In this document: positions 2,108 through 36,124 of the stretch, in pieces | Layout: each line of letters starts with the position of its first letter | Numbering within the stretch: position 1 is the first letter of the stretch | Source of the DNA: Chiloscyllium plagiosum | Lineage: Eukaryota | Direction of reading: 5' to 3' | Length of the DNA: 36,243 nt | Assembly: GCF_004010195.1 (NCBI RefSeq) | Contig: NC_057759.1 | Span: 62,001 to 98,243, forward strand | Notes under the pieces: model-generated | Told to the model about the DNA's origin: nothing | Databases searched by the model: none | Seen by the model: only the letters and a program-made list of their open reading frames with translations | Made by a program: the position numbers and the translations under genes

Positions 2108-5100
2108 CGGCACAGACAGACGTCTCTCCGGCCGACAGCGTGAAATCAGAATAGTGTGTTGCCTCCCTGGTGTCAGGATCAAGGATATCTTGGAGAGAGT
2201 GCAGGATAATCATAAAAGGGAGAGGGACCAGCCGGAGTATACATTGGAACTAACTACCTAGGAAGGGGAAAGGATGAGATTCCGAATAAGTAAGAGAGGC
2301 AAGAATTTAGAAGGGAGTTCCTCTCCGGTCGTAATATCTAGATTACTTCCGCTGCTCCACGCAAGTGAAGGTAGGAGTAGGATGATAGAGTAAGGTAAAG
2401 CCCAAATCAGGAGCTGGTGCAGGGGAGAAGGATTCATATTTTTGGATCATTCGAATCTCTTCTGGGGAAGACGTGACTTGTATAAAAAGGATGGATTGCA
2501 GCTGAATTGGAAGGGGTCTAATATACTGACAGGGACATTTCCTGGAGCTGCTGGGGAGGGATTAGACTAGTATGGATGGGGGTGGGAGATAATGAAGAAA
2601 GAGATCGATCTGAGGCTGGTATAGTTGGCAAGTCAAACAGTCAGGGCAGGCAGGAACAAAGCAGAGAATGGAGTAGGATTCATAAATTAAACTGCGTTTA
2701 TTTGAATAAAAGAGGCCTAACAGGGAAGAACGATGATCTCAGGACATGGTTAGGAAAATGGAATTGGTCTTGGGATATCATAGCTATTACAGAGACATGG
2801 TTTGGGGATGGACACAACTGCAGCTTACTGTCCCAGGAATCAAACGATGGGGGGAGGCGGGCAGCAAGAGAAAATGGGGAGTGACGTGTTTGGTAAGAGA
2901 TAAGCTTACAGATATACTTAGGGGGGTTTTTCCTGGGAATTATTTGGGTGGAACTGAGAAATAAGAAAGGGTTTGATCACCTTATTGGGATTGGACTGTA
3001 GACACCCCAACAGTCATCAGGAAATGAGAAGCAAATTTGTAAGGAGATCTTAGATCTGCAGGAATACTGGTGTGGTTATGGTGAGGGATTTTAACATTCC
3101 AAACATAGATTGGGACTGCCATTTTGTTAATGGTTTCAACAGAGAGGAATTCCTTAAGTGTGTACAAGAAAGTTTTCTGATTCTGTATGTGAATGTACCT
3201 TCCAGCCAAGGTGCAAAACTTGACCTACACTTGGGATATAATGATGTGGCAGTGGGGGAGCATTTTGGGGCCAGTGACCATAATGTAAAACTGTTATTGA
3301 AAAGGATAAACCAGATCTCAAAGTTAAATTTCTAATTTGGAGCAAGGTCAATTTTGAGAGTATTATGCAAGAACCTTCAAACGTTGACTGAGGGCAGATG
3401 TTCACAGGCAAAGGGATGGCTGGAAAATGGGAAGCCTTCAAAAATGTGAAAACAAGGGTCCAGAGACAGTATGTTCCTGTTAGAGTGAAAGGCATGACTG
3501 GTAAGTGTAGGAAATGCTGGATGAGAAAAGAAGTTGAGGTTTTGGTCCGAATGAGAAGGAAGCATATATTAGTTAAATACAGTAGAGGTTGACAGCAATA
3601 GGGAAAAACTTAAGATGGAAATCAGGAGGGCAAAAAAGGGACATAAGATACCTTTGGCAAATATTGTTAAGGAGAATTTAAACCGATTTTATAAATACAT
3701 GAAGGACAAAAGGGCCCAACAAATATTAGCAGGGCAGCCTATGTGTGGAACAACAGGAAATGTGGAGATACTAAGCAAGTTCTTACTGAGGAGAAGGAAA
3801 TGGAAGATGTAGAATGTGGGAAATAGATGGTGACATTTTGAAAAATGTTCATAATACAGAGGAGGTGCTGCTGGATGTTTTTAAACATAAAAGATGGATA
3901 AAGCATGAGCACCTGATCAGGTGTATCCTGGAACACGGTGATAAGCTAGGGAAGTGATTGTTGGGCCCCTACTGAGATACCTGTATCATCAATAGTCACA
4001 GTTGAGGTGCCCAAAGACTGGAGGTTGGCTAACGTGGTACCACTGTTTAAGAATGGTGGTAAGGCAAAGCCAGGGAACTATTGAACAGTGAGCGTAACAT
4101 CAACAGTAGGCACACAGTTGAGGGGATTGTGAGAGACAGGATTTACATCTTTTTAAAAGGCCACTGGGAAGTCATGTATCACTAACTCAACTGATTTTTT
4201 TTAATTGGTAAGGAAGAGGACTGATGAGGGCAAAGTGGTGAATGTGATCTATATGGCCTTCAGTAAGGCGTTTGACAAGGTTCCCCATGCGAAATTGATT
4301 AGCAAGATTGAATCACATGGAATACAGGGAGAACTCGCCATTTGAATATAGAACTTGTTTGAAGGTAGAAGACAGAGGGTGGTGGTTGTGGGATGCTTTT
4401 CAGACTGGAGGCCTGTGACAAGTGATGTGCTACAAGAATCACTGCTGGGTCCACTGCTTTTCATCATTTATATAACTGATTTTAGTTAAAAACATGACAA
4501 CACCAGGTTATAGTCCAACAGGTTTATTTGGAAGTACAAGCTTTCAGAGTGCTGCTCCTCCGCCAGGTGTCGATGCTCTGAATGCTTGTACTTCCAAATA
4601 AATCTGTTGGAGTATAACCTGGCGTTGTGTCATTTTTAACTTTGCACACCTCGGTTCAACTCCAGCCCCTCCCATTATTATGAATGATTTTGGATGTGAA
4701 GGTGCACCTATTGTTAATAAGTTTGCAGATTACACAAAAATTGGAGTTGTAGTGGCCTGCAAAGAAGACTACCTCAGAATACAGCAGGATCTTGATCAGA
4801 TGGGCCACTAGACTCAGCAGTGGCATATTGAGTTCAATTTATATCAATATGAGGTGCAGCAATTTGGAAAGGCAAATCAGGGCAAGACTTACACACTTAA
4901 TATTAAGGTCCTGTGGAGTGTTGCTGAACTAAGAGACGTTGGAATGCAGATTCATTGTTGCTTGAAGGTGGAGTTATAGTTAGATAGGATAGCAAAGAAG
5001 GCATTTGATATGTTTTCCTTTACTGGTCAGAGCTTTGAGTATGTAACTTAGGAGGACACGTTGTGGGTGTACAGAACATTGTTTATGCCACTTTTGGAAT

Positions 5101-5151
5101 ATTATGTGCAGTTTTAGTTTCTCTCCTATGGAAAGGATGTTGTGAAACTTG
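2108..5151 (+). mobile_element. Decayed CR1-type LINE: ORF1 esterase-like C-terminus, ORF2 endonuclease and RT fragments
   Basis: Translated pieces IVCCLPG.RIKD (ORF1), LNCVYLNKRGL..WDIIAITETW and VMVRDFNIPNIDW..SDHN (APE endonuclease), AFSKAFDKVPH (RT); many stops and frameshifts. Confidence 0.9.
4483..4675. mobile_element. Fold-back Penelope-derived short element (family B) inserted in the CR1
   Basis: gttaaaaacatgacaacaccaggttatagtccaacagg.. is inverted against ..ctgttggagtataacctggcgttgtgtcatttttaac; flanked by similar repeats tataactgatttt / tatgaatgatttt. Confidence 0.7.
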
Positions 5152-5154
5152 AGA

Positions 5155-6045
5155 CAGCTATTCAAGATAGTTTTTGGTCCAAAGAAAAGGCCTAAAATTT
5201 GGGAAGATATATAGTGAAAGACATGAAGGCTGCAAACAGATCTAAATTTAGCCAATGGCAGGGAAAAGGGATTTGACTAACAAAGGGCAAATGAAGAAAA
5301 CAGTAATGTTGCAGAAGCCATTAAAGGAAAAACAAACAGTTGAAGCACGAATACATTTGTAAAGAGAGAAATAGGTTGGTAAAGAGGACCATATATCAAT
5401 TACAACATAAAAAAAGGAGTTTAAAATGGGAAACAAAAACGTCTCAAAAATCTCTAACATAATGTTGTTCTCTGTTCACAAATGTTCACACAGCTAACAC
5501 AGTTGGGGAGTTTACTGAGAGGGAAAAACTGAGCCAAATCAGTATTATTTGGGAAATGATGTTGGGACAGTGGGTAGGATTGAAGGTTGGGCATTGATCA
5601 TCTACGTCACAGAGTATTTAATGTAGTGGGTTGAGTAGTACTGGATGCAGTGGTGATTCCTGATGAAGGGCTTTTGTCTGAAACATCGATATACCTGCTT
5701 CTCGGATGCTGCCTGACCTGCTCCAGCACCACTCTGACTTCAACTCTGGTTTCCAGCATCTGCAGTCCTCACTTTTGCCTGGATGCAGTGGTGGTCATGT
5801 TCCAAGATTCTATAAGCTCTGCAATAATTTACACAGATGGGGGGGGGGGGGGTTGCTAGTGTAAGTAATCCAATGGAAAAGGGAGGTAGGTATAAAATTG
5901 GGAACTATAGACCAGTCAGCCTACAGGGAAAAATCAAAATGAAAGCTTCAATTGCGAAGCATTTGACAAAACAGTATTCAGGATCCGATAGAGTCAGCAT
6001 GGACATGAAGGGCCTGTTCCAGTGCACACTGTTCTGTCCTCTAAG
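5155..6045 (+). mobile_element. Older, internally deleted CR1-type LINE remnant
   Basis: KGGRYKIGNYRPVSL motif, then gagtcagcatgga fused to the 3'-UTR-like aagggcctgtt..gttctgtcct; mirrored at 14320-14700. Confidence 0.7.
5656..5778 (+). mobile_element. Penelope-derived short element (family A) with a 15-bp target-site duplication
   Basis: cctgatgaagggcttttg..gaaac..ggatgctgcctgacctg..ccagcatctgcagtcctcactttt; TSD ctggatgcagtggtg at 5641-5655 and 5779-5793. Confidence 0.8.
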
Positions 6046-6789: not shown

Positions 6790-7379
6790 ATGAGCGACAG
6801 TGCAGCCGCCGAAACGGCTCCTCCAGCCGCCGCTCCCACCAAAGCCAAGGCTCCCAAGAAGAAGGCNNNNNNNNNNNNNNNNNNNNNNNNNNNNNNNNNN
6901 NNNNNNNNNNNNNNNNNNNNNNNNNNNNNNNNNNNNNNNNNNNNNNNNNNNNNNNNNNNNNNNNNNNNNNNNNNNNNNNNNNNNNNNNNNNNNNNNNNNN
7001 NNNNNNNNNNNNNNNNNNNNNNNNNNNNNNNNNNNNNNNNNNNNNNNNNNNNNNNNNNNNNNNNNNNNNNNNNNNNNNNNNNNNNNNNNNNNNNNNNNNN
7101 NNNNNNNNNNNNNNNNNNNNNNNNNNNNNNNNNAAGGCGACAGCAAAGAAATCCCAGGCCAAGAAAGCGACAGCCAAGAAGTCCCCAGCCAAGAAAGCGA
7201 GCGGCAAGAAGACGGCACCGCCAAAGAAAGCGGCGAGCAAAGCAGCGCCAAAGAAACGGACTCCCGTGAAGAAGGTGAAAAAGGCCAAAGGCCCAAAAGC
7301 CCCTAAACCCCTCAGCAAACCGGCTAAAAGCAAGGCCAAGCCCAAAGCGAAAGTGACCAAGACAGCAGCAAAGAAATGA
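6790..7379 (+). CDS. H1: Linker histone H1 (globular domain hidden in an assembly gap)
   Basis: MSDSAAAETAPPAAAPTKAKAPKKK N-terminus; K/A/P-rich C-terminus with SPAK and TPVK motifs ending at TGA 7377-7379; histone stem-loop downstream. The two halves are out of frame only across the N gap. Confidence 0.9.
6867..7133. other. Assembly gap (267 N)
   Basis: Run of N. Confidence 1.
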
Positions 7380-7409
7380 ACCCGTAATATATAACCATCT
7401 GAACCCAAA

Positions 7410-7450
7410 GGCTCTTATCAGAGCCACCCACATCTCTCAGGAAAGAGCTG
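7410..7450 (+). terminator. Histone 3' stem-loop plus U7-binding HDE of H1
   Basis: ccaaa GGCTCT-TATC-AGAGCC acccac at 7410-7425; AAAGAGCTG at 7442-7450. Confidence 0.9.
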
Positions 7451-8350: not shown

Positions 8351-8803
<453 letters not shown>

Positions 8804-8859
8804 ACGGAGCATAGTCGGCCCTACACATTCACCCCGAGACAGAGAGAGAAAAACACAAC

Positions 8860-8898
8860 GGCTCTTTTCAGAGCCACTAAACCATCCAGAGAGAGCGG
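8860..8898 (+). terminator. Histone 3' stem-loop plus HDE of H3
   Basis: GGCTCT-TTTC-AGAGCC at 8860-8875; purine-rich AGAGAGAGCG downstream. Confidence 0.9.
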
Positions 8899-9142
8899 GA
8901 AATGATGGGTTGCATGAATATTGTAATTATAAATCTATGAAGTAAATGGGGATGGAGTGAAATATTGATCTGGAGTTAGTCAGCAACTATGAAGATTCAG
9001 CAGCCGAGGTCTTCGGTGATTGCAGAATTTGTTATAACATGATATTAGAGATTTGAAATTTTGCTACACAATTGGGAATTCCCCGAACAAAAGCCCTCTC
9101 TCCTCACTGTTTATCGTCGTGGTAAACATGGTTTGTGCTTGT

Positions 9143-9549: not shown

Positions 9550-9637
9550 TGTTAAAAATCACACAACACCAGTATATAGTCCAACAGGTTTAATTGGAAG
9601 CACTAGCTTTCGGAGCGACGCCCCTTCATCAGGTGGA
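9550..9637 (-). mobile_element. Penelope-derived short element (family B) with a hammerhead-like core
   Basis: Minus strand ccacctgatgaaggggcgtcgctccgaaagctagtgcttccaattaaacctgttggactata..gtgatttttaac. Confidence 0.8.
9601..9635 (-). ncRNA. Minimal type-I hammerhead ribozyme motif
   Basis: CAC-CUGAUGA-A-GGGGC/GUC/GCUCC-GAAA-GC-UA-GUG. Confidence 0.6.
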
Positions 9638-10889: not shown

Positions 10890-11313
<424 letters not shown>

Positions 11314-11343
11314 AGAGAGTATTCTTGAATCTGACAACCCAAA

Positions 11344-11359
11344 GGCTCTTTTAAGAGCC
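11344..11359 (+). terminator. Histone 3' stem-loop of H2A
   Basis: ccaaa GGCTCT-TTTA-AGAGCC actcac. Confidence 0.9.
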
Positions 11360-11904
11360 ACTCACAGCATCTGTGAAACGAGTTCTCCCTTCCATCAGAT
11401 TGAATTACCTTCCTGTGGTTAATTGTCTTTAATCGTCGTCCTATAAATGCATTACTCAGTCCCTGTACTCGCTCGCAGGCAGATTCACGTTACGTTGTGC
11501 TGTATTTAGGAAGAGCTGAATTGCCCCCGTGCCATAAGTTTATAATGAGTGGTCGCTGACCCTCTGTTTTATTCTCTGATGTGTTCGTGTATAAGATCCT
11601 TTGCCTGGTCATGAGAGGGAGCATAATAGAGGCCACAGTCATTTTCAGCTACTTCCAGTTTGTTGCTCTTTAATAGTCAACCAGTTCGGTAGTAACGCCC
11701 CCATGGAGTATGAGCCCGAGTTTGATCTCCGGCAAACAACAAGTGCCCCATCTTTGATTTCCACGGATAGATTCATTTTACGCTTTTTAAATTTCAGAGT
11801 ACCGATGGTGTTGTCTGATTGCAAAAGGCTCTGAATGAGGCGTTCTGCTGTCAAAGCTTTAAAAATGAAGAGCTCAAACCAGAACAGTTGCCTCACTGTA
11901 AGAC

Positions 11905-14315: not shown

Positions 14316-15649
14316 AGCAGAGAACATAGAACATTATAACACAGAAACAGACCGTTAAAATCCATGCTGACTCGGTTTGATTCTGATTTTTTTTAACCCC
14401 AGACACTCTGCATTCTTTTTTCCCTGCAGGTTGAGTGGCCTATAATTCCCAGTTTATCTCTACCTTCCTTTTCAAATAGTTTTTCTGTTTCTGTTTCCTC
14501 TCTACACATTTTATAAATACTTTAACAGTTGTTTCTTTTTCACAACAATTGCAAGCTTACTCTTGTCATCATTTTCTCTTTCTTCCTCAATGTGCTCATC
14601 TCCTCGTTTGCTGAAATCTAAACTGTTCCACCCTTTAGGTCTGTCTATTTATTTTCTTCGCAATTAGAACACGTGTTCTTGGAATCAAATACAATCTTAC
14701 AGAACCCTAACGTTCCGTAAAGTTTACAAAAGTAATACTGAAGTTTTGTGAAATCTAAAACGAATACCGTCCAAACTCAGGGCAACTTCTATCTCAAAAG
14801 TTGAATGCAGCTGATGTAGGGGTACATCAGCTTGATCGAGGATAGGTTTCTCTCTAAGCCAAACACCATGATAACTTGGAAATGCAACATATCCCCTTTC
14901 ATTCACTGTCACTGGATCAAGACCCTGGAACTCTGTTCATGGTATTGTGGGTAGCACATGGACAACAGCTCCAGAAGGTGGCTCACCACTGCGTCCTCTA
15001 AGGGAAGGATAATAAATGCTAGGCTCAGCCAGCGACAGACATGTTCCAGGAGTGAATCAGTAAAAATAGCTGGGGTGTCTCATCGTGGCATACAACATAT
15101 CACAAGGTTTCTGTCTGCAGCATACCTGACACTAAAATTTGTCATCCACTATAAACTAAAACGAGTCCCAGTGATCCTATTGCACATCTCCCTGATCCAG
15201 GTTTGATTTCTTCGGGCCTCCTGACGCAGAAATAGGGAATGATACTATGACGCAAGACTCTGCAAACAGTTACATACTGTCTTCGTAAAAAAGTTCCACT
15301 TATTCTATCTATCTGTCTGTGTGCTACTTTCAACCAGGTGTTAGTATTTGTGGATGAGGGTAAACAGGATTAATTACCACACCTAACATAAGATGAGATC
15401 TGATATTATTGAATGGGCTGAGTGGCCGCCAGTTTCTCCGCTCCCTGATCAGAATGTGAGAGAGTCGGAGGGAGGAGTTATTAACATGACTCGGGAAAGA
15501 GCTCAGTTGGAGCTTTATAAAGGGATGATGTCCCAGCTTGAAACCTTCTCTACCCTTCCTCCCACAGTCCCAGTTCTTTTGGTCAAACTGGGAGAAAAGG
15601 GAATTGGGGAAATGACCAATTGATGTTTGTTTCTGGGAATCAGTGGGAA

Positions 15650-16050
15650 AAAGTAGCGCGTGCGCAGTGCCGCCCTATCCGCAATGCTATCAGTCCCTGA
15701 CCAGAAGAACGCATGCGTGAGGCCCTCCCCCAGCGCTGCCATTGAGGAGCATTTACTCAGTGAGTGCAAGAGGTTTGTTTGAAACAGACCGCAATGGAGA
15801 GATCAGCGCCCAGGGAAGCGAGGGAACAGCAGGCTCCTTCCAGCAGCACATCGGGATGGGAGCCTGGGACACAGAGGGGGCTCCGAGACCGGGATTGATT
15901 CGGGTGAGTTCAGGGAGAACCGGGGGCTGTTTGTAAGAGGCCGAGCGGAGCAGGAACTGGTCCCGGAACTTGGAGTGAGCGGGCTGGGGGGAAGAGAGAG
16001 GCCTTTCTCGGGCTGTGTGTGGGCCTGCTGAGGGAGGCAGAGCGGGAAGA
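15650..16050 (+). promoter_or_regulatory. CpG/GC-rich promoter-like island with NRF1-type sites and a candidate first-exon donor
   Basis: GCGCGTGCGCA 15656-15666, ACGCATGCGT 15709-15718, CGG|GTGAGT at 15903/15904, followed by G-rich intron-like sequence. Confidence 0.6.
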
Positions 16051-16402
16051 AGCTGCTGTGGGATATTCTTGTGGTTTTTAATCCCCGAAACACTGATGGG
16101 AATTGTTTGGCTTCTGTTTGTTGCGAATAGACGTTGAATTGTTGTGCCCGTTGTTCTTCCTTCTACAGTGTATTGGGAGCTGAATATTGAACTGGGTAAT
16201 CATTCTACTTATGAAAGTATGCAGATGTTGGTTAGTTTTTGTACCTGAGTAAATTGTTTTAGAATTTCGCAAACAGAAAATGACTGGGAGGAGCTCAGTG
16301 TTGAAGCGTAGCCGGGCCTTGCTCTGTTCACCTTGCCCTGTTAAAAAACAAAAAAAAATTCATGATCACGGCCTGAATTTGGCATTGATCAGTTGATGTC
16401 TC

Positions 16403-16548: not shown

Positions 16549-19469
16549 GTATGTTACTGTTGTCAGATTGGAGAACGTCATTTCCTCTGTCTAAGTGGAC
16601 TGAGTCAGACACATATTGAGCTCAATTTCCAGAAGTACACATTCAAGCCAAGAGTCAAACACAACTGTTGAAATATATTTTTTTGATTTCTCCCTGTACT
16701 AAATGCACAACAGATCAGTTCCAATAAATGCCATTATACATAGTCAATTATCATTTGCAATATCAGAAGAGGGATAGACTGTATCCTCTAATGACATATA
16801 CATTCAGGAACTGCATTAACTCCACATGTAGTAAAGTCAATTTTAAAGTTACAATCAAGGTGAACAAACAGATCATGCTGTTACGTTGTTACAGCAAGGA
16901 TTTCTGAGGGAGATATTGAGTGTAGATATAGAATGAAATTTTGGCATTATCAGTAACTGAGAGGGACAATTTTTTTTTGATAAATAGAAGTCCTATGCAA
17001 AAGGTACAACAATTAAATGGTGTAAATTCCAGATGAACCTCTCAGCCAAACCTGATGTAGAGAGAATGTTGACTACATGAATATACACATACAGACAACC
17101 ACCATCTCCAACCCGTCCTTAATATCTGTGCTTACATGCATGTGCACACACACCATTCTCTCTCAGCTACTGATTGATTTACAATAGTTGCAAATTTGTA
17201 CACCATCCTGAAATACGCATTCCAACAACTAACAGTAATGAAAATCCATATACACCGCAACTAGCAGAAAACATTTCATCAAACTGATTTCTATTCTCAG
17301 ATGTCAAGTCAAAGAAATTTACAGCACAGAATAAGTCTCTTCAAATTATTAAATCTGACTGATCAAAGACAGTCCATAACATAACATAACAGTTGATTGA
17401 GCTAACAATTCTAATCCATTTCAACCAGCATTCCCTTTCCATGAAAATATCATGGCAGCAGAGAAGTTGTCATCCCCATGGATATCGGAACATGATTCTC
17501 CATTTCATTATTTTGTAGTTATTTTCTTTTTCTGTCCAGCAAGAGCATTTTTAAAATTATTCTATATATATTTCAAAATTCGTTTTGATTTTCAATGAAG
17601 AGCCCTGCATTCCTCTTAACACTCCCTTCATTATAGTACCAAAAAAAGCCAGGAAGCAGAATATAGTTTTGTGACGGAGTTATTGGAATTGGAACATTAC
17701 TATTTAAAGCATAGCAGAATGAAAGAAAAAGCCAAAATTGGTCAGTTTGCCAAGCTGCTCACTTTTCTTTCAACAAGAGTTGATATTTAAATTGTCAAAT
17801 TCAATTTATTGAACTATTTAAATATGCTTTACAGAATGGTGGAAAATAAAAGTCCTTTTAATTTCCCCCTCCCTACCATAGAGCAACACAAGAGTCTGCT
17901 AATGGCTTGCACCAGATCCTGTCCAAATGGGTAAACAAATTGGAATTGGCCAATTCTCTTTCCTGTACAAGGAACACTGTGGTCAGTCAGCTGCAATGCA
18001 GTTGAAGTGTTCACTTAGTTGCAAGTGGGTTCGGTTAATACTGATTATTAATTCATTGGTTAAAACATGTCACAATGCAAAAATTAATAGCATCCTGAAA
18101 ACCAGACATTGATATCCCCACTGTTCCTGGTTAGACTCTGCACTATAGGAGTTACAAAAGTCCATTGCTTTCTACCATTGATTCTGAAGAAAAGCCAGAT
18201 GCTTTTTTGCCGCAATGTGATGCATGCTCACCTGTCCATGGATCCTCTCGGCACTAAAGATAAAGAACACTGGCTGTGGACATTATCAAACTAAATGTGC
18301 AGTGCCAGAGATTAAAGATATACAAACACATGCACTTTCACTGACAAGAGTTGACTCCAGTGACAGTAGATAGTACCTCATTCATGTCAAGTAACAGAAG
18401 TTTGAACAATGAAGTACTCTTGCAGTTTCTAAAAGGGACATGTTTCAATTTAAATGACACTGAAGCACTGTGAAACACAATAACCAAGTATAAGGAGCTC
18501 ATTGATATCTAGTATCAGAGAGTGAATGAATCTCATTCTCACACTGAGCCTGGTGCTGATGAACACACCCTTTCTCCACACTCACATTCTGGTTGAGGGA
18601 CTGAGTAATGCAGAAGCATTTCCATACTTTTTAATATATGAAACACTGATTTATAAGGCGTTAAACCCACCTCATAAACTCTATCAGATCATGACATGCT
18701 GAACTAGAAACAAGGCAACATTCAAAAAATGTCAGTGTGATATAGACCAGTGCCACTCCTTTAAAGTGATACAGATTGTCAGCATAACAGAAAACTCACT
18801 CGCACTCAGCCAGTTAATGCTGAAAGGGAAAAATAATGAAATTTAGGCCCAGGTATTTCCAAATATGGACAGTTATAAATTGACTTACCAAACCATTAAT
18901 CACTTCAGTTAGTGTCAGATGTTACATCTTGCAGTGTCCAGCAGCAACTGATAAAGTCTCCTGCAAACACAAAATATTTAAAACAAACAATTAATGCAAT
19001 AAAATTCAGATTCATGGCAAAGATAAATATTGAACCAATATTAATCCCTTAATCACAAAAGGTTAGTCAATATTGATACAGTTTATCCTACGCTCAGACC
19101 AAAAAAAAACACAACTGAACATGAAAAGAGAATGAGATCCACATACTCTCCCTGATGCTGTTGCATACAAGCAAAACTGGTACTATAATTATCAAAGATA
19201 GGTAACGGCAGAAATAATCTCTAATTTGCATTTAGATAGAGATACAGGCAGTGAGTGGATAAAGTTCAGAATCCCAACAGTTAGTTGAAACTCTTATGGA
19301 GAACAGGTGAAGAACAGAATGTTCCAGTCTGGACACAATGGGCTGAATGGCTGTACCAATTCTGTGACTCTGTCATAAATGACATGATGCAGAAGAGATT
19401 CAGGCCCAATCACAACACCCTAAAATCAACTATCACAGAATCAATCACAGTCACAGAGAATTCTGTTTT

Positions 19470-19680
19470 CTAAATTCATTCATGGGATGAGGGCATCAAT
19501 AGCTAGGCCAGCATTTATTGCCCATCCCTAACTGCCCAGAGGTTGGTTATGTGTCAGCTACATTGCTGGGGGTCTGGAGACACATGTAGGCCAGACCAGG
19601 TAAGGATGGCAGCTTCCTTCCTTAAAGGACATTAGTGAACCAGATGGGTTTTTCAGACAAGAGTCATTGGACTCTTAGAA
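19470..19680 (-). mobile_element. SINE 3' part, inverted counterpart of 1-168
   Basis: ttcattcatgggatg..atttattgcccatccctaa..ggtctggag.cacatgtaggccagacc..ggacattagtgaaccagatgggttt. Confidence 0.7.
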
Positions 19681-20204
19681 TATTATTGGCTGTCAGCGAA
19701 TTAAACAACCTTGATGCATGAGAGTTGAAAGTGACTGGTACTGATTGAGCACTTGACTCAGTCACATAGCAGAAACTGACGAGGATAGATCAATTCCTGA
19801 ACACTCATATGGACACAACGGGGACTGACAGGCATAGATTGATAGCTGCTCTCACATATTCACTCTGCAGAAATTGAAAGGGAGAGCATGATACTTAAAC
19901 ACACACCCCACACCACCTCCCACACTCCCCACATGCACTTTATAAACACTGGCAGGTACAATCTGATAAATGCATTTGCATATTTATAAACTAGACGTTG
20001 ACAGATACAGATTCATAGCTACGTCCTGAGATACACAGAGCAGAATATAACAGGGACAGATTGAACAATCACACTCACATGCACATGACAGGACATTTCA
20101 GAGGATGACTGAAAACTGCATTCTCATTCACAAAACAGAGACTGACAGGAACATATTGATGCCACTCTCTGTTTCAAATTACTTGTACGGTTTGATAATG
20201 ACAC

Positions 20205-20962
20205 TCAAGAAACTGACAGGTTGAGATTGATGACAAAAGAAATCACAGTTACATTTGAGGTCAAGTGACTCTTCCTCAGAACTGATTGTCTGCATTTTCC
20301 TCGCTGCTGTGTGGTCTTCTGGGGAAACTGAGTATAGATTGGGTGTCCACTGTGCAGAGCACCTACATTCTGTCCAGAAAAAAAAAGACCCTGAGCTTCC
20401 AATTGTCTGCCCCTTCAACACAGAACCCTGTTCCCTGGCCAACATCTCTGTCTCAGGCTTGCTGTATTGCTCCAGCGAAGCTCCGTGCTAGCTGGAAGAA
20501 CAACACCTCATTTTCTGCTTGGGAACTCGACAGCCTTCTGGACTCAATATTGGGTTCAATGACTTTAGAGCCAGAGCTCTCCCATGTCATTACCCGAATT
20601 CCCACACACCAGGCAGTGTTAACACATAGTATACTATTATACACCAACAATTACTAACAGTCCCTATTAACAGCTATTCACCCTCCTCGTCTGACCATGA
20701 TCCACTCATTTGTCTGTCCAACTGTTCTTCCCTCTCTATGGATTCTATCTCCATATATCATTTACTCCATACTCTTCAACACACCCTATCTTCTGCATGG
20801 AAACTAATATTTTCCTGGCTACCACCAGTTCTCAGGAAGGGTTACTTGATTGGAAATTTTTATCTCTAATTTTCTCCACAGGCTCTGTCAGACCTGCTGA
20901 GCTTTTCCAGCAATTTAATTTTGTTTCTGATTTCCAGCATCTGCAGTTCTTTTGGTTTTTAT
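20205..20962 (+). mobile_element. Penelope-like element 3' fragment (GIY-YIG remnant plus pLTR, with an inverted pLTR piece at the 5' end)
   Basis: GETEYRLG..AEHLHSV.KKDPELPI.CPFN..CS..NISVSGLL.CSSEA..LEEQHLIF.LGT.QPSGLNI; 20205-20285 is inverted relative to 20825-20900. Confidence 0.85.
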
Positions 20963-21054
20963 TTAGAGATTAAGAACTACATTTTCACACTCTCAGAGCA
21001 GAAACTATCAGAAAAAAATTGATAACCACATTCATATGTTCACAAAAGAACTTC

Positions 21055-21145
21055 TAGATTCGAGTGGTGCTGGAAAAGCACAGCTGGTCAGGCAGCATCT
21101 GAGGACCAGGACAATTGATGTTTTGGACAAAAGCCCTTTGTCAAG
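21055..21145 (-). mobile_element. Penelope-derived short element (family A) fragment
   Basis: gagtggtgctggaaaagcacagc.ggtcaggcagcatctgagga..aaaagccctt. Confidence 0.75.
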
Positions 21146-21299
21146 TATTGATAAATACACTCGCATTTTTATTACAGATCCTGATGGGGAAAGAACCTAA
21201 TTAAACCATCACAAAGCATAAACTGACAGGGACTGTGAAGAACTAAATCCTCACATTCACAGATCAGAAACTGGCAGTCTTAGATTGACAATTACCTAA

Positions 21300-21491
21300 G
21301 AACAGCAGGTCAGGCAGCATCTGAGGAGCAGGAAAATCGACATTTTTGGCAAAAGCCCTTCATCAGAAAGGGCTTTTGCCCGAAACATTGATTTTTCCTG
21401 CTCCTCGGATGCTCCCTGACCTGCTGTGCTTTTCCAGCACCACTCTGATCTCCACTCTTGTTTCCAGCATCTGCAGTCCTCACTTTTGCCT
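21300..21491 (+). mobile_element. Fold-back family-A element with a 10-bp TSD
   Basis: Inverted arms ~21302-21360 and ~21368-21426; TSD aattacctaa at 21290-21299 and 21492-21501. Confidence 0.85.
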
Positions 21492-21511
21492 AATTACCTA
21501 AACACGTTCAC

Positions 21512-22040
21512 CAAGCAGATTTCCTCAGCAGGCTAAGGACGTTCAGCATGTCTATAAAGACTCTTCCAAATTGTCTCACAGAAAGCATCCTGTCTGAGTG
21601 TATCACAGCGTGGTATGGCTGCCTAAGACCACAAGAAACTGCAGAGAGTTGTAACACAGCTCTGTCCATCACAGAAACCAACCGTCCATCCAATAACCGC
21701 ATTTCCACCAACCCCTGACTCGGGAAAGCAACCAACATAATCAAGGACCCATCCGACCCTAGTTATACTCTCCTCCATGCTCTTCTGTCAGGGAGAAAAC
21801 ACTGAAGTTTGAATACACCATCCAACAGATTCAAGAACAGTTTCCCTGCTGCCATCAGACTTTTGAATGGATCACTCAAATTTTAATGTTAATCTCTCTC
21901 TGCACCATTAACACTGTATTCCGGATTCTGTTCTATTACCCTGATGCACTTTGTATGATATGATCTGCCTGTAAAGCGCACAGAACAATACTTTTCATTA
22001 CAACTCGTGATTGTGCCAATAACAAGTCAGATCAAATCAA
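21512..22040 (+). mobile_element. Rex1/Babar-type LINE 3' end
   Basis: FLSRLRTFSMS..ESILSECITAWYG..KKLQRVV..IIKDPSDP..LLSGR..RFKNSF; tail tcaaatcaa. Confidence 0.8.
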
Positions 22041-22394
22041 GTAGATAACTACAGCCTCATTCATATAGCAGAATCTGAGAGTTACATGTTGATAACTACA
22101 GTCACAAACTGACAGAAAAAGATGAATAAATACACTCAAATATTCGCATTTCGGAGCCTGACAGGGAAAGATTGATAACTTGAACACTCACATTCACAAG
22201 ACTGAAACTGATAGTGACAGATGAAAACTCAGCTCACACATTCTCATTGCAGGGATAGATTGACAATTACACAAACCTATTCAGCGAGCAGAAACTGACA
22301 GCCACAGATTGGTAAATATCTCTGTATTCACACGGCAGAGTCTGAAAGATACAGATTGACAATTACACTCACTTTGACAAGGAGGAAATTAAAA

Positions 22395-24153
22395 TCAGCA
22401 AGGTGGCCTTTGTGCGGAGCAGCAGAAAATGGGGGAGATACTAAATAAGTATTTTGCATCAGTATTTACTGTGGAAAAGGATATGGAAGATATAGACTGT
22501 AGGGAAATAGATGGTGACATCTTGCAAAATGTCCAGATTACAGAGGAGGAAGTCCTGGGTGTCTTGAAATGGGTAAAGGTGGATAAATCCCTAGGACCTG
22601 ATCAGGTGTACCTGAGAACTGTGGGAAGCTAGAGAAGTGATTGCTGGGCCTCTTGCTGAGATATTTGTATCATCGATGGTCACAATTGAGGTGCCGGAAG
22701 ACTGGAGGTTGGCAAACGTGGTGCCACTGTTTAAGACAGGCGGTAAGGACAAGACAGACCAGTGAGTCTGACCTCAGTGGTGGGTAAGTTGTTGGAGGGA
22801 ATCCTGAGGGACAGGATGTACATGTATTTGGAAAGGCAAGGACTGATTCAGGATAGACAACATGGCTTCGTGCGTGGGAAATCATGTCTCTCAAAATTGA
22901 TTGAGGCTTTTGAGCAAGTAACAAAGAGGATTGATGAGGGCAGAGCAGTAGATGTGATCTGTATGGTCTTCAGTAAGGTGTTCGACAAGATTCCCCATGA
23001 GAGACTGATTACCAAGGTTAGATCTCATGGAATACAGAGAGAACTAGCCATTTGGATGCAGAACTGGCTCAAAGGTAGAAGACAGGATGGTGGTGGAGGG
23101 TTGTTTTTCAGACTGGAGGCCTGTAACTAGTGGAGTGCCACAAGGATCGGTGCTGGGTCCTCTACGTTTTGTCATTTACACAAATGATTTGGATGCGAGC
23201 GTAAGAGGTACAGTTAGTAAGTTTGCAGGTGACACCAAAATTGGAGGTGTAGTGGACAGTGAAGAGGGTTACCTCAGGTTACAACAGGATCTTGACCAGA
23301 TGGGCCAATGGGCTGGGAAGTGGCAGATGGAGTTGAATTCAGATAAATGCGAGGTGCTGCATTTTGGGAAAGCAAATCTTAGCAGGACTTATAGACTTAA
23401 CGGTAAGGTCCTAGGGAGTGTTGCTGAACCAAGTGACCTTGGAGTGCAGGTTCATAGCTACTTGAAAGTGGAGTCGCAGGTAGATAGGATAGTGAAGGTG
23501 TTTGGTATGCTTTCCTTTATTGGTCAGTGTTTTGAGTACAGGAGTTGGGAGGTCATGTTGTGGCTGTACAGGACATTGGTTAGGCCACTGTTGGAATATT
23601 GTGTGCAGTTCTGGTCTCCTTCATATTGGAAAGATGTCATGAAACTTGAAAGGGTTCAGAAAAGATTTACAAGGATGTTGCCAGGGTTGGAGGATTTGAG
23701 CATTAGGGAGAAGCTGAACAGTTTTCCCTGGAGCATTGGAGGATGAGGGGTGACCTTACAGAGGTTCCTAATGAAAGGCTTTTGCCCGAAATGTCGATTT
23801 TGCTTGTCCTCGGATGCTGCCTGAACTGCTGTGCTCTTCCAGCACTACTAATCCAAAATCTGGTTTCCAGCATCTGCAGTCATTGTTTTTACCAAGATAT
23901 AAAAGAGACCTAAGGGGCATCTTTTTCATGCACAGGGTGGTACGTGTATGGAATGAGCTGCCAGAGGAAGTGGTGGAGGCTGGTACAATTGCAACATTCA
24001 AGAGGCATTTGGATGGGTATAAGAATAGGAAGGGTTTGGAGGGATATGGGCCGGGTGCTGGCAGGTGGAACTAGATTGGGTTTGGGATATCTGGTCGGCA
24101 TGGACACTTTGGACCGAAGGGTCTGTTTCCATGCTGTACATCTCTCTGACTCT
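22395..24153 (+). mobile_element. 5'-truncated CR1-type LINE (RT to 3' tail), relatively young
   Basis: GEILNKYFASVFT, SLTSVVGKLLE, QHGFVRGKSCL, SGVPQGSVLGP, SKFAGDTKIG, LVRPLLEYCVQFWSP, RVVRVWNELP; tail ctctctgactcta. Confidence 0.95.
23765..23893 (+). mobile_element. Family-A Penelope-derived element nested in the CR1 3' region
   Basis: ttcctaatgaaaggcttttgcccgaaatgtcg..ccagcatctgcagtcattgtttttacc. Confidence 0.8.
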
Positions 24154-24321
24154 AGGTACAGAATAATAACTGTACTCCCACATTCACATAGCTGAAACTG
24201 GATACAGTTTTATTAATACATCCATTTTCACAGAACATAAGCTGATGTGTACTGATCAATAACTGTACTTGCATACTGACAGGGTCGGATTCATACTTGC
24301 ACTCTTGTATTGACATATTAG

Positions 24322-25070
24322 TGTTATGACACAGTGGTAAATCCCTCTGCTAATTAAACCAAACACACAGAAAAGCTCACCTCGCCTAATAATCTGTTAA
24401 AATATGAGGGACAGAGAATGACCCAAATTCCACTATTTAACAAGAGCATCAATTATATTCTTTAATGCTGAAAGTGAACATTAAACAACAACTATTTACA
24501 ACTCTAAGCCTCCTTTCGCTTGAAGACTTGTTATCTACCTCCCACTCTTTAACAATATGCTGATTCAATAAACCCCCTATTAAATTTACAGCAACTTAAT
24601 TTTCAAAACCAGACAGTGGTTGTCATCCCCAGTGTCGATCTTCCTCTGTAGATCTCCCAGGGTCATCTTTGGTCTTTGGCTGTAAAGATGTTTCCTATGA
24701 AAATGGTACCTTTGATTGAGATTGTTGTGAATAACAGTCTTTCAATGAACGTTCATTCTTTTTTTGGCCAATTGTCCAAAATGTCTGATTTTTTTTGTTA
24801 ATACCCCAAACATCGGATCATCTCATTGGTTTGATAATGTCAAAACAGTAAAATACAAATTCAATTGTATTTTAGGAGCTTGAGGCATAATTTAAATGGA
24901 TTGGTTAAATGTGAAATACGAACTAAGGTATCTAGGTAACAGCCAAATGTTACATCTTTCAATTTTCCATCACACTCTGTGACTGCTAGTCAGTCACAAG
25001 ACAGGTGCTTGCCAGCTTTCAGCTTTCACTCTCTGTTAAAGGTACAGTACATACCTTCAACTTCATAACA
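24322..25070. mobile_element. Solo LTR-like element, 749 bp
   Basis: Termini TGTTATGA...TCATAACA (8-bp inverted repeat); flanks ttag/atag; cleanly interrupts the minisatellite. Confidence 0.75.
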
Positions 25071-25560
25071 ATAGAAACAGATTGATCATGATGCTCAGGT
25101 GTCAAATAGCAAAATCTGATAGCATTTGGTATTTGCACTCCGATATTGATATAGCTAAATCTGACAAAGATCAATATGTACATTCACATAGAAGAAACTG
25201 AAGGGTACAAATTGATGCGTGCATGTTTATAGTCAGGCAGCCGGAACTGACAGGTATAGATACATAAGTAAACTCTCATATCCAGACATGCACTTACATC
25301 AGGTAGTCCCATTTGTGGCACTGTAGAGGTACTGGTTAGGATCTGGGTCTCAGTGAATTGGTATAGATTTTGTTTTTTGTTACAATGACCAGACAAAGAG
25401 CAGCTGAGGCCAAGAATAGAATCAGTGGTTCTGTTGGAATTACTGGCTTGAAAGAAAAACAGCCTAATGATTAGTAAATAAATATTACATTGAAAGGTTT
25501 GATACTGTCAAACTCACATAATGTTGAGTTATAGGCGATGCCTCCTCTCTCTTCCTTCAG

Positions 25561-25834: not shown

Positions 25835-27964
25835 CATAGAGTCACAGAGATGAACAACACAGAAACAGACCCTTTGGTCCAAATTATCTCTGCCAACCAA
25901 ATATCCTAGTCACATTTGCCAGCACTTGGCCCATATCCCTCTAAACCCATCCTATTCGTATACCCATCCAGATGTCTTTTAAATTTTGTAATTAACCCAG
26001 CCTCCACTTCCTCTGGTAGCTCATTCCATACACACACCACCTTACACGTGAAGAGGTTGCCCCTTAGGCCCTTTTTAAATTGTTCCCCTTTCCCCTTACA
26101 CCTATGCCCTCTAGTTTTGGACTCGCTCACCCCAGGGAAAATACATTGTCTAGTAATCCTATCCATGTCCCTCATGGTTTTATAAACCACTATAAGTTCA
26201 CCCTGCAGCCTCCAACGCTCCTGGGAAAACTGCCTCTTTATTCAGCCTCTCCCTATATCTCAAATCCTCCAACCGTGGCAAGATCTTTGTAAATCTTTTC
26301 TGAACCCATTCAAGTTTCACAGTACCACAGTTTAGGAGGGAGATCAGAATTGCACACAGTATTCCAAAAATGGCCTAACCAATGATCTGTACAGCTGCAA
26401 CATGACCTCTCAACTTCTACGCTCAATGCTCTGACCAATAAAGGAAAACATACCAAATGTTTCTTCACTATCCTATCTTTCCACTTTCATGGAACTATCA
26501 ACCTGTATTCCAAGGTTTATTTCTTCAGCAACATTCCCCACAACCTTATCATGAAGTGTATAAGTCTTCCTCTGATAAGCTTTTCCTAAATGCAGCACCT
26601 CACATTGATCTGAATTAAACTCTATCTGCCAGTCTTCAGCCCATTGGTCCATCTGATTCAGATCCTGTTGTACTCGGAAGTAACCTTCACTGTCCACAAC
26701 ACGTCCGATTTTGGTGCAATCTGCAAACCTACTAACTATACCTCCTGTGTTCAGATCCAAATCATTTACATAAATGATGAAAAGCTGTGGACCCAGCACT
26801 GATCCTTGTAACACACCACTGGTCACATGTCTCCGGTCTGAAAAACAACCCTCCACCACCATCCTCTTTCTTCTACTCTTCGCGGCAGTTCTGTTTCCAA
26901 ATGGCTAGTTCTTCTTGTATTCCATATGATCTAACCTTGCTAACCAGTCTACCATGAGGAACTTTGTCAAACGCCTTACTGAAGCCCATAAAGATCAAGT
27001 CTACCAGTCTGCCCTCATCAATCCTCTTTGTTACTCCTTCAATAAACTCAATCAAATTAGCGAGACATGATTTGCCACATACACAACCATGTTGCCTGTC
27101 CCTAATCAGTCTTTGCCTTTCCAAATACATATAAATTCTGTCCCTCAGAATTCCCTGCAACAGCTTGCCCACCACCAATGTCAGACTCGCCAGCCTATAG
27201 TTCCCTGGCTTGTCCTTGCCACCTTTCTTAAATCGTGGTACCATGTTAGCCAACCTCCGGTCTTCCAGCACCCCACCTGTGACTATCGATGATACAAATA
27301 TCTCAGCAAGGGGCCCAGCAATCACTTCCCTAGCTTCCCACAGAGTTCTCGGATGCACCTGATCAGGTCCTGGGGAGTTACCATTTTTGCGTTTTAAGAC
27401 ATCCAACACCACCACCTCAGTAATATGGACATTTCTCAAGATGTCACCATCCATTTCCCCATATTCTGTATTCTCCATGTGCTTCTCCACAATAAACACT
27501 GATGCAAGATAGTCATTTCTTATCTCTCCCATCTCCTGCGGTTCCACACATAGGCTGCCTTGCAAATCTTTGTGAGGGGCCTCATTTTCACCCTAGTTAT
27601 CCTTTTGTCCTTAATGTATTTTTAGAATTCCTTAGGATTCTCTTTAACCCTATTTGCCAAAGATATCACATGTCCTCTTTTTGCCTTCTTGATTTCCCTC
27701 TTAAGGAAATGCCAACTGCCTTTATACTTTTCTAAGGATTCACACTATCTTTGCTGTCTATACCTGACATATGCTCCCTTCATTTTCTTGACCAAAACTT
27801 CAACTTCACTCATCATCCACATTGCCTACACCTACCAGGCTTTCCTTTCACCCTATCTGGATTCTCGTTCTCATTTTTGAAAGCTTCTTATTTTCTAGCC
27901 ATCCCTTTACCTGTGAATATCTGCCCCCAATGAACATTTGAAAGTTCTTGCCTAATACTGTCAA
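25835..27964 (-). mobile_element. 5'-truncated CR1-type LINE
   Basis: Minus-strand ORFs with NSPGPDQVHPR, KPGNYRLASL, FSKAFDKVPHGRL, SGVLQGSVLGP, FADCTK, SKTRGHR, WNELP. Confidence 0.95.
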
Positions 27965-32119: not shown

Positions 32120-32775
32120 TGCTAGGACTGGAGGTTTTGAGTTAGAGGGAGAGGCTGAACAAGCTGTTGCTTTGTTCTCTAGACTGTCAGAGAATGAGGT
32201 GTGACTTTTGTACAGGTTGAGAAAATCATGAGGGGCATGTTAGGGTGAATAGCCACGGTCTTTTTCTGAATGTGGGTGAGTGCAAAAATAGAGGACACAG
32301 GTATGAATTGTGGAAAAAAGATTTTAAAAGGGCCTGTGGGGTTACTCTATCACATAGAGGATGGTGCTTGTATGGAATGAGATACCAGAGGAAGTGGAGG
32401 TGGTGGGTACAATTACAACCTTTTATAGGCACCTGGATATATCCAAGAATAGGAACAGTTTAGAGGGGTATGCGCTAAAAGCTGGCAAATGTGACTAGCT
32501 ATGATATGGAGGTGCCAGTGTTGGACTGGGGTGGACAAAATTAAGAACAACACAACACCAGTTTCTTGAACAGCAGGTTTATTTGGAAGCACTAGCTTTC
32601 AGTGCACTGCTCCTTCATCACTCTGAAAGCTGTTGCTTCCACATAAACCTATTGTACTACAACCTGGTGTTGAGATTTTCAACTTAAATGGGACGAAGTC
32701 AGATTAGGATCTCTCGTCAGCACTAACAGCTTGCACCAAAGGATCTGTTTCTGTGCTGTATAACTGTATGACTCT
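32120..32775 (+). mobile_element. CR1-type LINE 3' end with a nested fold-back family-B element (~32505-32685)
   Basis: ECKNRGHRYEL, gtatggaatgag..ccagaggaagtgg, tail ctgtttctgtgctgtataactgtatgactct. Confidence 0.8.
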
Positions 32776-34513: not shown

Positions 34514-34894
34514 ATGGCTGATGAGAAGAAAGCGCAGCAAGCCTCCAAGAAGGGCGCGAAGAAAATCATCAAGAAGACGCCAGCGAAGGGAGGCAAGAAG
34601 AGGAAGCGGACCAGGAAAGAAAGTTATGCCATCTACATCTACAAAGTGATGAAGCAGGTTCACCCCGACACCGGCATCTCCTCCAAGGCCATGAGCATCA
34701 TGAACTCGTTCGTCAACGATATTTTCGAGCGCATCGCGGGGGAGGCTTCCCGCCTGGCCCATTACAACAAACGCAGCACCATCAGCTCCCGGGAGATCCA
34801 GACCGCCGTGCGGCTGCTGCTGCCCGGGGAGCTGGCCAAGCACGCCGTGTCGGAGGGTACAAAGGCGGTGACCAAGTACACCAGCTCCAAGTGA
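34514..34894 (+). CDS. H2B: Histone H2B, 126 aa
   Basis: [110 protein letters not shown]. Confidence 0.98.
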
Positions 34895-34935
34895 GGGACC
34901 GCATTGTACTGAAACACACACATCCACAACCCAAA

Positions 34936-34976
34936 GGCTCTTATAAGAGCCACCCACAACTTCCCAGAGTGAGCTG
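34936..34976 (+). terminator. Histone 3' stem-loop plus HDE of H2B
   Basis: ccaaa GGCTCT-TATA-AGAGCC acccac at 34936-34951; AGAGTGAGCTG downstream. Confidence 0.9.
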
Positions 34977-35211
34977 AATTTTTTTTTAAAGATTGGTTTT
35001 GTTTTAGTTTATAAATGATTATTTTTAGCGTTATATTAAAGTTTTGCAAACTAATGAGGTACGGCGCGGGGAAGATTGCATTTACAGGCTCGTCCCTGTC
35101 TGTTGGAAGTGGGCAGATTAACTGTAAGTGAGTCATTTTTCACCTTGTTTATTTAACATTGGTAAAAGCCCTGGTAGAATGCTAATACTTCGTTTCACAC
35201 CTTGCAAACAA

Positions 35212-35288
35212 CCACCAAATGAAGGAGCAGCACTCCGAAAGCTAGTGCTTACAAATCAGCCTATTGGTGATACGTGATTTTTAACTTC
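35212..35288 (+). mobile_element. Family-B Penelope-derived fragment (mutated hammerhead core)
   Basis: ccaccaaatgaaggagcagcactccgaaagctagtgctt..gtgatttttaactt. Confidence 0.75.
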
Positions 35289-35306
35289 GCCAACAACACA
35301 TACTTG

Positions 35307-35492
35307 GTTCTGGATTAGTGGTGCTGGAAGAGCACAGCATTTCAGGCAGCATGCAAAGAATTATTCCTGATGAAGGGCTTTTGCCTGAAACGTCGATTTC
35401 GAAGCTCCTTGGATGCTGCCTGAACTGCTGTGCTCTTCCAGCACCACTAGTCCAGAATCTGGTTTCCAGCATCTGCAGTCGTTTTTACCTCA
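35307..35492 (+). mobile_element. Fold-back family-A element with a 15-bp TSD
   Basis: Arms ~35308-35357 and ~35409-35458; TSD aacaa(c/t)acatacttg at 35292-35306 and 35493-35507. Confidence 0.85.
35363..35398 (+). ncRNA. Minimal hammerhead-like motif (family A)
   Basis: AUUC-CUGAUGA-A-GGGC/UUUU/GCCU-GAAA-CG-UC-GAUU. Confidence 0.5.
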
Positions 35493-35749
35493 AACAATAC
35501 ATACTTGTCGACATCTTTCATCGCATACATTTTCATCTGATTTAAAAAACATATTTGCAATGCGCGGGTATAATCCGATTTTTCAGAATGCAAAAACCTA
35601 AGCACTTTCTGCTGTCGTTAAGAGGCTTTCAAAGGGAACCGAGAGAACGCCAAAACAGCTGCCGGATTGAAATGTGATGATTTTGCTGATTGATAGAGCG
35701 AGAGCAATAAGGGAGGACAGCTTTAAAATATCGTCTAAACAACATAATT

Positions 35750-36080
35750 TGGAGATGCCGGTGATGGACTGGGGTGCACAAAGTTGAAAATCACACAACA
35801 ACAAGTTATAGTCCAACAGGCTTAATTGGAAGCACACTAGCTTTCGGAGCGTAGCTCCTTCATCAGGTGGTAGTGGAGGGCTCAATCCTAACAGAATTTT
35901 TAGCAAAAATTTACAGTGTGATGTAACTGAAATTACGCATTGAAAAATTGATTTTGTTAAGCCTTTCATCTGTTAGAAAACCATGATAGTTTCACTTCTT
36001 TAATGTGTAAATCACAACTTTTTTAAAAAGTTGCATTCTCAGGTTAGCTGTTAACAATGGTGATAGCTAGACAATATGTT
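35750..36080 (-). mobile_element. Longer family-B Penelope pLTR fragment
   Basis: ggagatgccggtg.tggactgggg..aaaaatcacacaac..ttatagtccaacagg..ctagctttcggagc..ccttcatcaggtgg, followed by probable further element sequence (right boundary uncertain). Confidence 0.7.
35835..35869 (-). ncRNA. Minimal type-I hammerhead ribozyme motif (best-preserved copy)
   Basis: CAC-CUGAUGA-A-GGAGC/UAC/GCUCC-GAAA-GC-UA-GUG. Confidence 0.65.
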
Positions 36081-36124
36081 GTCTAACCACCGGGTTCGCC
36101 AACGCTACTGTGCTGGAAGAATGT

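Follow-up and report, generated by a model that had tools for sequence, protein, structure and literature searches.

Minimal hammerhead ribozymes have been described in the pseudo-LTRs of metazoan Penelope-like elements (PLEs), where monomers were reported to be inactive and dimers to cut weakly (Cervera and De la Pena 2014, PMC4209133). Among Xenopus dimers, one of nine cut (bioRxiv 10.64898/2026.07.22.740005), and the PLE hammerhead of Anolis cuts only with the element protein and is dispensable for insertion in vitro (PMC11167929); the function of these motifs is treated as an open question in PMC8557442 and PMC11167929. An optional tail of 30-40 bp, truncated inverted neighbours and short duplications are given as hallmarks of endonuclease-positive PLEs (PMC8557442, PMC3846280), PMC11167929 also lists PLE hallmarks of the kind found here, and a Cys-rich linker between reverse transcriptase (RT) and endonuclease marks the Neptune and Nematis clades (PMC8557442). 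Retrozymes have been reported in one chondrichthyan genome (bioRxiv 10.64898/2026.07.22.740005), and sharks are not named in the accessible text of PMC4209133 or in its supplement file 2.

Here we analyse a window of 36,243 nucleotides from Chiloscyllium plagiosum (NC_057759.1, positions 62,001 to 98,243), in which a hammerhead motif lies at 35835-35869 on the minus strand. By every feature testable in its sequence, this motif belongs with the minimal hammerheads of PLE pseudo-LTRs (PMC4209133): it is of type I and has no real helix III, its 15.1-16.1 segment is palindromic, an extra nucleotide stands between positions 9 and 10.1 next to a G10.1-C11.1 pair, and the copies are mostly solo with some opposite-strand pairs. 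Unlike the families of S. mansoni, in which helix I has 4-5 and helix II 7-8 bp (PMC4209133), it has helices of 3 and 5 bp. As in PAc / Poseidon of Anolis carolinensis (Frangieh et al. 2024, PMC11167929), two element ends set an optional tail; unlike PAc, whose ORF starts inside the motif (PMC11167929), the present motif has an internal AUG that hits a stop after 8 codons. The pseudo-LTR derivation, the type-I motif and the dispersed monomer copies are shared with non-LTR retrozymes, but these consist of tandem units (bioRxiv 10.64898/2026.07.22.740005), whereas the copies of the repeat family studied here (family A) are solo or inverted and have target duplications and a tail.

Anatomy and detection of the hammerhead motif

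Read directly from the sequence, the minus strand from 35869 to 35835 forms a complete minimal type-I hammerhead of 35 nt (Table 1). The anatomy proposed in an earlier note on this DNA, CAC-CUGAUGA-A-GGAGC-UAC-GCUCC-GAAA-GC-UA-GUG, is exactly what the strand reads, and the cut predicted there between 35838 and 35837 agrees with the sequence in position. The motif contains the catalytic boxes (CUGANGA and GAAA) with U16.1-H17 as well as a helix II with G10.1-C11.1 and one additional nucleotide after A9, and its helix III is shrunk to a palindrome that would permit dimers, AGCU being present in all five copies compared. Helix changes within family A comprise one A-U to G-U exchange and no two-sided change.

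A strict descriptor, requiring exact boxes, a helix II of at least 5 bp, a helix I of at least 3 bp and at most 6 nt in place of helix III, detected two sites in the window, 9601-9635 and 35835-35869. Dinucleotide shuffles of the window gave a mean of 0.005 strict matches, with any match in 1 of 200 and two matches in none of the 200. A pattern of the boxes only was not above chance (6 in the window against a shuffle mean of 4.12; 23 of 100 shuffles), and an Rfam scan of the window yielded no hammerhead family among 13 matches with E values up to 10. The Rfam result was not counted against a hammerhead because minimal motifs are not expected to score.

At position 17 (35838), a G was observed in about 4-8% of the depth of organism B; in run X1 of organism A its share was about 43%. 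By the NUH rule, a G at position 17 is non-cleavable, and the reads with G perhaps reflect either a single deep contig or a subfamily that spread with its site already dead.

Table 1 Features of the hammerhead motif, the surrounding element, related copies and the histone genes in the window
Feature	Position	Strand	Basis or remark
Hammerhead motif	35835..35869	-	3-bp helix I, CUGAUGA, extra A, 5-bp helix II, GAAA, AGCU palindrome, UA
Helix I, 5' strand	35869-35867	-	Sequence
CUGAUGA box	35866-35860	-	Sequence
Extra A between first box and helix II	35859	-	Sequence
Helix II, 5 pairs, G10.1-C11.1 first, 3-nt loop	35858-35854 / 35850-35846	-	Sequence
GAAA box	35845-35842	-	Sequence
AGCU palindrome	35842-35839	-	Sequence
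A17	35838	-	Sequence
Helix I, 3' strand	35837-35835	-	Sequence
Predicted cleavage site, 3' of A17 (35838)	35837..35838	-	Position from sequence alone
2-nt duplication particular to the 35835 copy, just behind helix I	35833..35834	-	Missing in other aligned window copies, L002, reads and contigs
Probable 3' end fragment (pseudo-LTR) of a family A Penelope-like element, truncated at its 5' end, about 338 bp	35744..36081	-	Depth limits, flanking duplication
Decayed target-site duplication, left copy	35733..35741	+	8/9 identical to 36081-36089
Decayed target-site duplication, right copy	36081..36089	+	Partner of 35733-35741
Optional tail separating the two 3' ends of family A, about 40-43 bp	35744..35787	-	Loose ends 35747/35750 and 35787
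Poly(A) hexamer position of the family (AAUAAA/AUUAAA), here AUUAAG	35821..35826	-	Hexamer kept in 4/7 window copies
Sites of poly(A) addition in transcripts of the family (from other copies, in organism B)	35806..35810	-	844/3,291 reads
GU/U-rich stretch behind the poly(A) sites, presumably the downstream element	35785..35805	-	Sequence
Second family A copy, intact motif 9601-9635, short form	9551..9636	-	Descriptor, profile
Family A copy, first box broken, deletion	35212..35285	+	Descriptor, profile, alignment
Family A head-to-head inverted pair, broken cores	4484..4682	.	Profile, alignment
Head-to-head inverted pair of family A with its junction inside the motif; cores broken or cut	32501..32685	.	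Profile, alignment
Family B inverted pair; + copy with both boxes (35367-35390), first helix II pair G-U; 14/15 duplication	35308..35490	.	
Family B copy; both boxes exact, helix II weak, palindrome broken; 15/15 duplication	5656..5781	+	
H1, replication-type histone gene	6790-7450	+	Histone stem-loop after gene; 267-N gap inside
H3, replication-type histone gene	8397-8899	+	Histone stem-loop after gene
H2A, replication-type histone gene	10990-11384	+	Stem-loop after gene; frame seems without clean N-terminus in ORF list
H2B, replication-type histone gene	34520-34976	+	Histone stem-loop after gene

The element around the motif and its relatives in the window

The limits of the element were derived from public contigs and reads at 80% likeness in four runs (three of the 18 containing the stretch, plus one raw-read run). 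In the index, none of the runs containing the stretch is listed as RNA. At 35742, contig and read depth climbs to 4e5 from about 1.6e3, and it drops past about 36090, the summed contig depth at 35742-36090 not being taken as a copy number, and in the public contigs the repeat carries on as a loose end behind 36081. The studied copy measures about 338 bp, compared with 90-130 bp for copies elsewhere in the window; the continuation of the repeat beyond 36081 indicates that it was cut short at its 5' end. Its limits are flanked by a decayed duplication, whose score of 8/9 was reached by 0.95% of 2,941 random boundary pairs. Family A has 3' ends at 35787 and at about 35744-35747, some 40-43 bp apart, the long end being present in three and the short end in four of the seven window copies. 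The locus displays the traits of endonuclease-positive PLEs: an optional tail, 5' truncation with adjacent inverted copies, and target-site duplication. The left flank of the studied copy contains a low-copy repeat (35540-35700) that is present in RNA runs, too.

Profiles built from window copies identified 19 element copies, seven of family A, nine of family B and three of family C. The earlier estimate of about a dozen cores in three families was therefore roughly right in number, but both boxes are exact in only four of the 19 copies (9601, 35835, 5660 and 35367), and in the two of these that belong to family B (5660 and 35367) helix II opens with a G-U pair. Four units in the window are head-to-head inverted pairs, and tandem family A units are absent from it. 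Searches for target duplications at nine other units gave 15/15, 14/15, 10/10 and 11/13, the remaining five being weak. Two further observations concern the arrangement of the copies: the junctions of inverted pairs at 4560-4580, 21355-21375 and 32615-32630 lie within the hammerhead motif (first box or helix II), and at 35204-35507, 240 bp from the studied copy, a family A copy is located beside a family B inverted pair.

Indirect link to a Penelope-like open reading frame

No PLE ORF was detected within the window (best tblastn E value 0.28), and a pattern scan of viral contigs gave no matches. The same scan of metagenome contigs revealed two loci, L001 and L002, whose motif shares 32 of 35 positions with the one studied here; the L001 motif retains both helices and has a different loop. 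In L002, the motif is preceded on its own strand by an ORF, which ends 750 nt before it. The peptide of this ORF matches two RT-bearing proteins (E values 1e-33 and 5e-32; 2 of 92 candidates) and, at 0.97, GIY-YIG clusters of the ESM Atlas in which the family is annotated on 23-34% of the members; Pfam assigned no family to this peptide. A CxxxxCxxC motif is found in the L002 peptide and in P0001 and P0002. In L001, an inverted RT fragment (RVT_1, E value 1.1e-5; 51% identical to P0002) adjoins the same element end. The first 109 bp of L002, at the contig start, and its positions 983-1091, in the 3' region, form a 109-bp inverted repeat (94%), like the fold-back structures of PLEs.

Both loci are contigs of another organism. 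As no PLE ORF was detected in the window itself, the link from family A to the ORF is indirect. Outside the motif, nhmmer found no match between family A and L002; a likeness behind the motif that is visible in the alignment was dropped as evidence for this reason. A position behind an ORF with RT and GIY-YIG domains was found for the L001/L002 motif, and the motif of the window family would by extension lie in the 3' region behind such an ORF with a Cys-rich linker of the Neptune/Nematis type. In this linker the linked ORF of L002 (marine) differs from Poseidon. Together, the strict descriptor, the pseudo-LTR hallmarks and the ORF link of L001/L002 support the Penelope-like origin and the minimal dimer-type hammerhead claimed in the earlier note.

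Folding, cleavage and conservation

The isolated 35-mer is predicted to fold into helices I and II. When it is embedded in a context of 101-338 nt, the predicted probability of helix II is 0.72-0.90 and that of helix I 0.005-0.11. Only weak folding z-scores were obtained for the motif (-2.08, -0.46 and -1.90; -0.61 in context). The modelled active dimer has an energy of -16.3 kcal/mol, 6.6 kcal/mol above the best cofold (-22.9 kcal/mol), so that an active dimer through AGCU appears possible in the model, not favoured. The nearest intact family A copy on the same strand is 26.2 kb away.

Among the read ends listed, none coincides with the cut site at 35838/35837, which is a weak test. It provides no evidence against cleavage, since an oligo(dT) library misses the 5' product and would lose a 30-nt 3' product. 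For PAc / Poseidon, no RNA-seq read ends at the cut site either, and RT was described to use uncut RNA (PMC11167929).

The core deviates from the majority in 11 of 121 cells and the flanks in 64 of 636 (Fisher p 0.87), a comparison of low power that covers the 11 window copies reaching the first box (5/7 of family A, 6/9 of family B), several of them old. The cores decay like the flanks, that is, neutrally, in this test. An absence of excess core conservation among young copies had been named beforehand as one of two observations that would jointly speak against the ribozyme proposal, and the result agrees with this one half, on few and old copies.

A probable polyadenylation site behind the motif

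Run X19 is a poly(A) single-cell run of one sample of the related organism B; the raw reads analysed make up about 2% of it and include uncollapsed duplicates. Among these, reads have poly(T) loose ends before 35806 (504/3,291) and 35809 (340/3,291). The RNA is on the strand of the motif and its depth is level across the cut site (1309, 1429 and 1395 in three bins), the poly(A) ends being located about 30 nt past the uncut cleavage site. AAUAAA or AUUAAA precedes the poly(A) sites by 11-15 nt in four of the seven family A window copies, and position 35821 differs from the studied copy in 1279 of 1303 plus-oriented RNA reads. Behind the poly(A) sites the sequence is GU-rich, and its first 20 nt contain only 1-2 A in all four window copies checked, so that mispriming by oligo(dT) is not the favoured explanation. 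The hexamer AAUAAA is also present in L002, 18 nt past the cut site, and in none of the four family B copies checked. Only 4 of the 3,291 reads are at least 99% alike to the stretch studied here; the X19 reads derive from other copies, perhaps of another species.

Uncut, polyadenylated RNA of the family exists, and a cut fraction is not visible in this type of library. We consider the poly(A) site behind the hammerhead to be probably real. It is not mentioned in the accessible part of PMC4209133, and no description of a poly(A) site behind a PLE hammerhead was found in the literature searched, as far as accessible (including PMC2377424, PMC3846280 and PMC7140322, with most subscription papers and the Repbase reports lying outside the search), so that the site may well be known already.

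Origin of the short copies

We regard it as highly probable that 35744-36081 is a 5'-truncated PLE end copy with a minimal dimer-type hammerhead, and that the short copies result from truncation. All parts of a minimal hammerhead are present in the motif, which lies inside a repeat with a tail, inverted pairs and target duplications. By analogy with published PLE work, the element protein would nick DNA and start reverse transcription inside the RNA at 35787 or about 35744, on a template RNA presumably left uncut at the ribozyme. Synthesis would often stop early, most often just upstream of the motif, and in the present case after 338 nt. Family transcripts are, in one library, polyadenylated about 30 nt behind the cut site; as the poly(A) sites fall 20-60 nt short of the genomic 3' ends, the templates for integration must, by this reasoning, be read-through RNA. 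The ribozyme itself would act only when two copies pair via AGCU, as in tandem element transcripts, probably with the help of protein.

Alternatively, the short copies could be a true non-autonomous family, SINE-like or a monomeric retrozyme. Their template would then be a short RNA beginning immediately upstream of the hammerhead, and a PLE protein would copy it in trans. In most short copies of families A and B, the start is indeed no more than about 5 nt away from CUGAUGA; at 5656 it is directly bordered by a perfect 15-bp duplication. Non-autonomous elements derived from pseudo-LTRs have also been published (bioRxiv 10.64898/2026.07.22.740005; PMC8557442). However, the repeat runs on upstream of the studied copy of 338 bp, the window holds no family A tandem array, and polyadenylation at 35806-35810 stops short of both genomic 3' ends. 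We therefore judge this alternative unlikely, and the SINE-like, non-autonomous family suggested in the earlier note is not needed: the 338-bp copy, the continuation past 36081 and the varied lengths all fit 5' truncation.

Genomic surroundings and host transcripts

Histone genes form a cluster in the window, which is also rich in LINE fragments. RT-bearing LINE fragments occur in large inverted pairs of 72-80% identity (1-1074 / 18570-19651; 22398-23766 / 26185-27563; 3343-5152), and at 19800-22370 and 24150-25290 a degenerate repeat with a spacing of about 40-90 bp was observed (families D1 and D15). The region 15600-16100 is a GC-rich island with a GC box and, on the plus strand only, a splice donor match (15903); its repeats are NRF1-like, and no protein-coding exon was identified in it.

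The motif at 35835-35869 is antisense to the upstream H2B gene (about 34.4-34.9 kb). It can never be sense in RNA from the 15.7-kb promoter, since plus-strand transcripts carry it in antisense and minus-strand transcripts run away from it; downstream of 15.7 kb, a single plus-strand copy, that of family B at 35367, retains both boxes. The cutting of a lncRNA from this promoter, as once proposed, is thus incompatible with the orientation of the motif in either direction, and the broader claim that host transcripts are cut is unsupported, given the distance to the partner, the decay of the cores and the weak or protein-dependent activity in the literature. That the host uses this or similar copies to cut or terminate transcripts crossing them is extremely improbable: the core is intact, and family RNAs are polyadenylated in the sense of the motif, so that sense copies elsewhere could end host transcripts, but the 35835 copy is never sense from 15.7 kb and is antisense to H2B, it has no partner within 26 kb and has lost the hexamer, the cores of the copies decay like the flanks, only the few RNA reads noted above closely resemble it in a run that may stem from another species, and published activity is low or protein-dependent, with one of nine dimers cut (bioRxiv 10.64898/2026.07.22.740005).

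Significance for Penelope-like elements

Being solo and without a poly(A) hexamer, the studied copy itself is most likely inert. For the element from which it derives, a layout resembling that of a retroviral LTR may be considered, in which the RNA start lies just upstream of the hammerhead, the poly(A) site some 30 nt past the cut and the start sites of reverse transcription still farther along. The element mRNA would then lose its poly(A) tail through a protein-assisted cut, and the many sense solo copies would provide host transcripts with a poly(A) site coupled to a conditional tail-clipping ribozyme. We put this proposal forward as a speculative and rather improbable one, and an action of the ribozyme on the poly(A) site in cells is a long shot. 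If true, tail clipping would be a switch that silences translated RNA and spares the read-through templates.

The copy in itself matters little, and the immediate result is that the class described in 2014 is extended to one more repeat family. If the poly(A) site behind the cut were found in more libraries and clades, it would give these hammerheads a concrete, testable role, the removal of the tail, and would identify read-through RNAs as the templates of integration.
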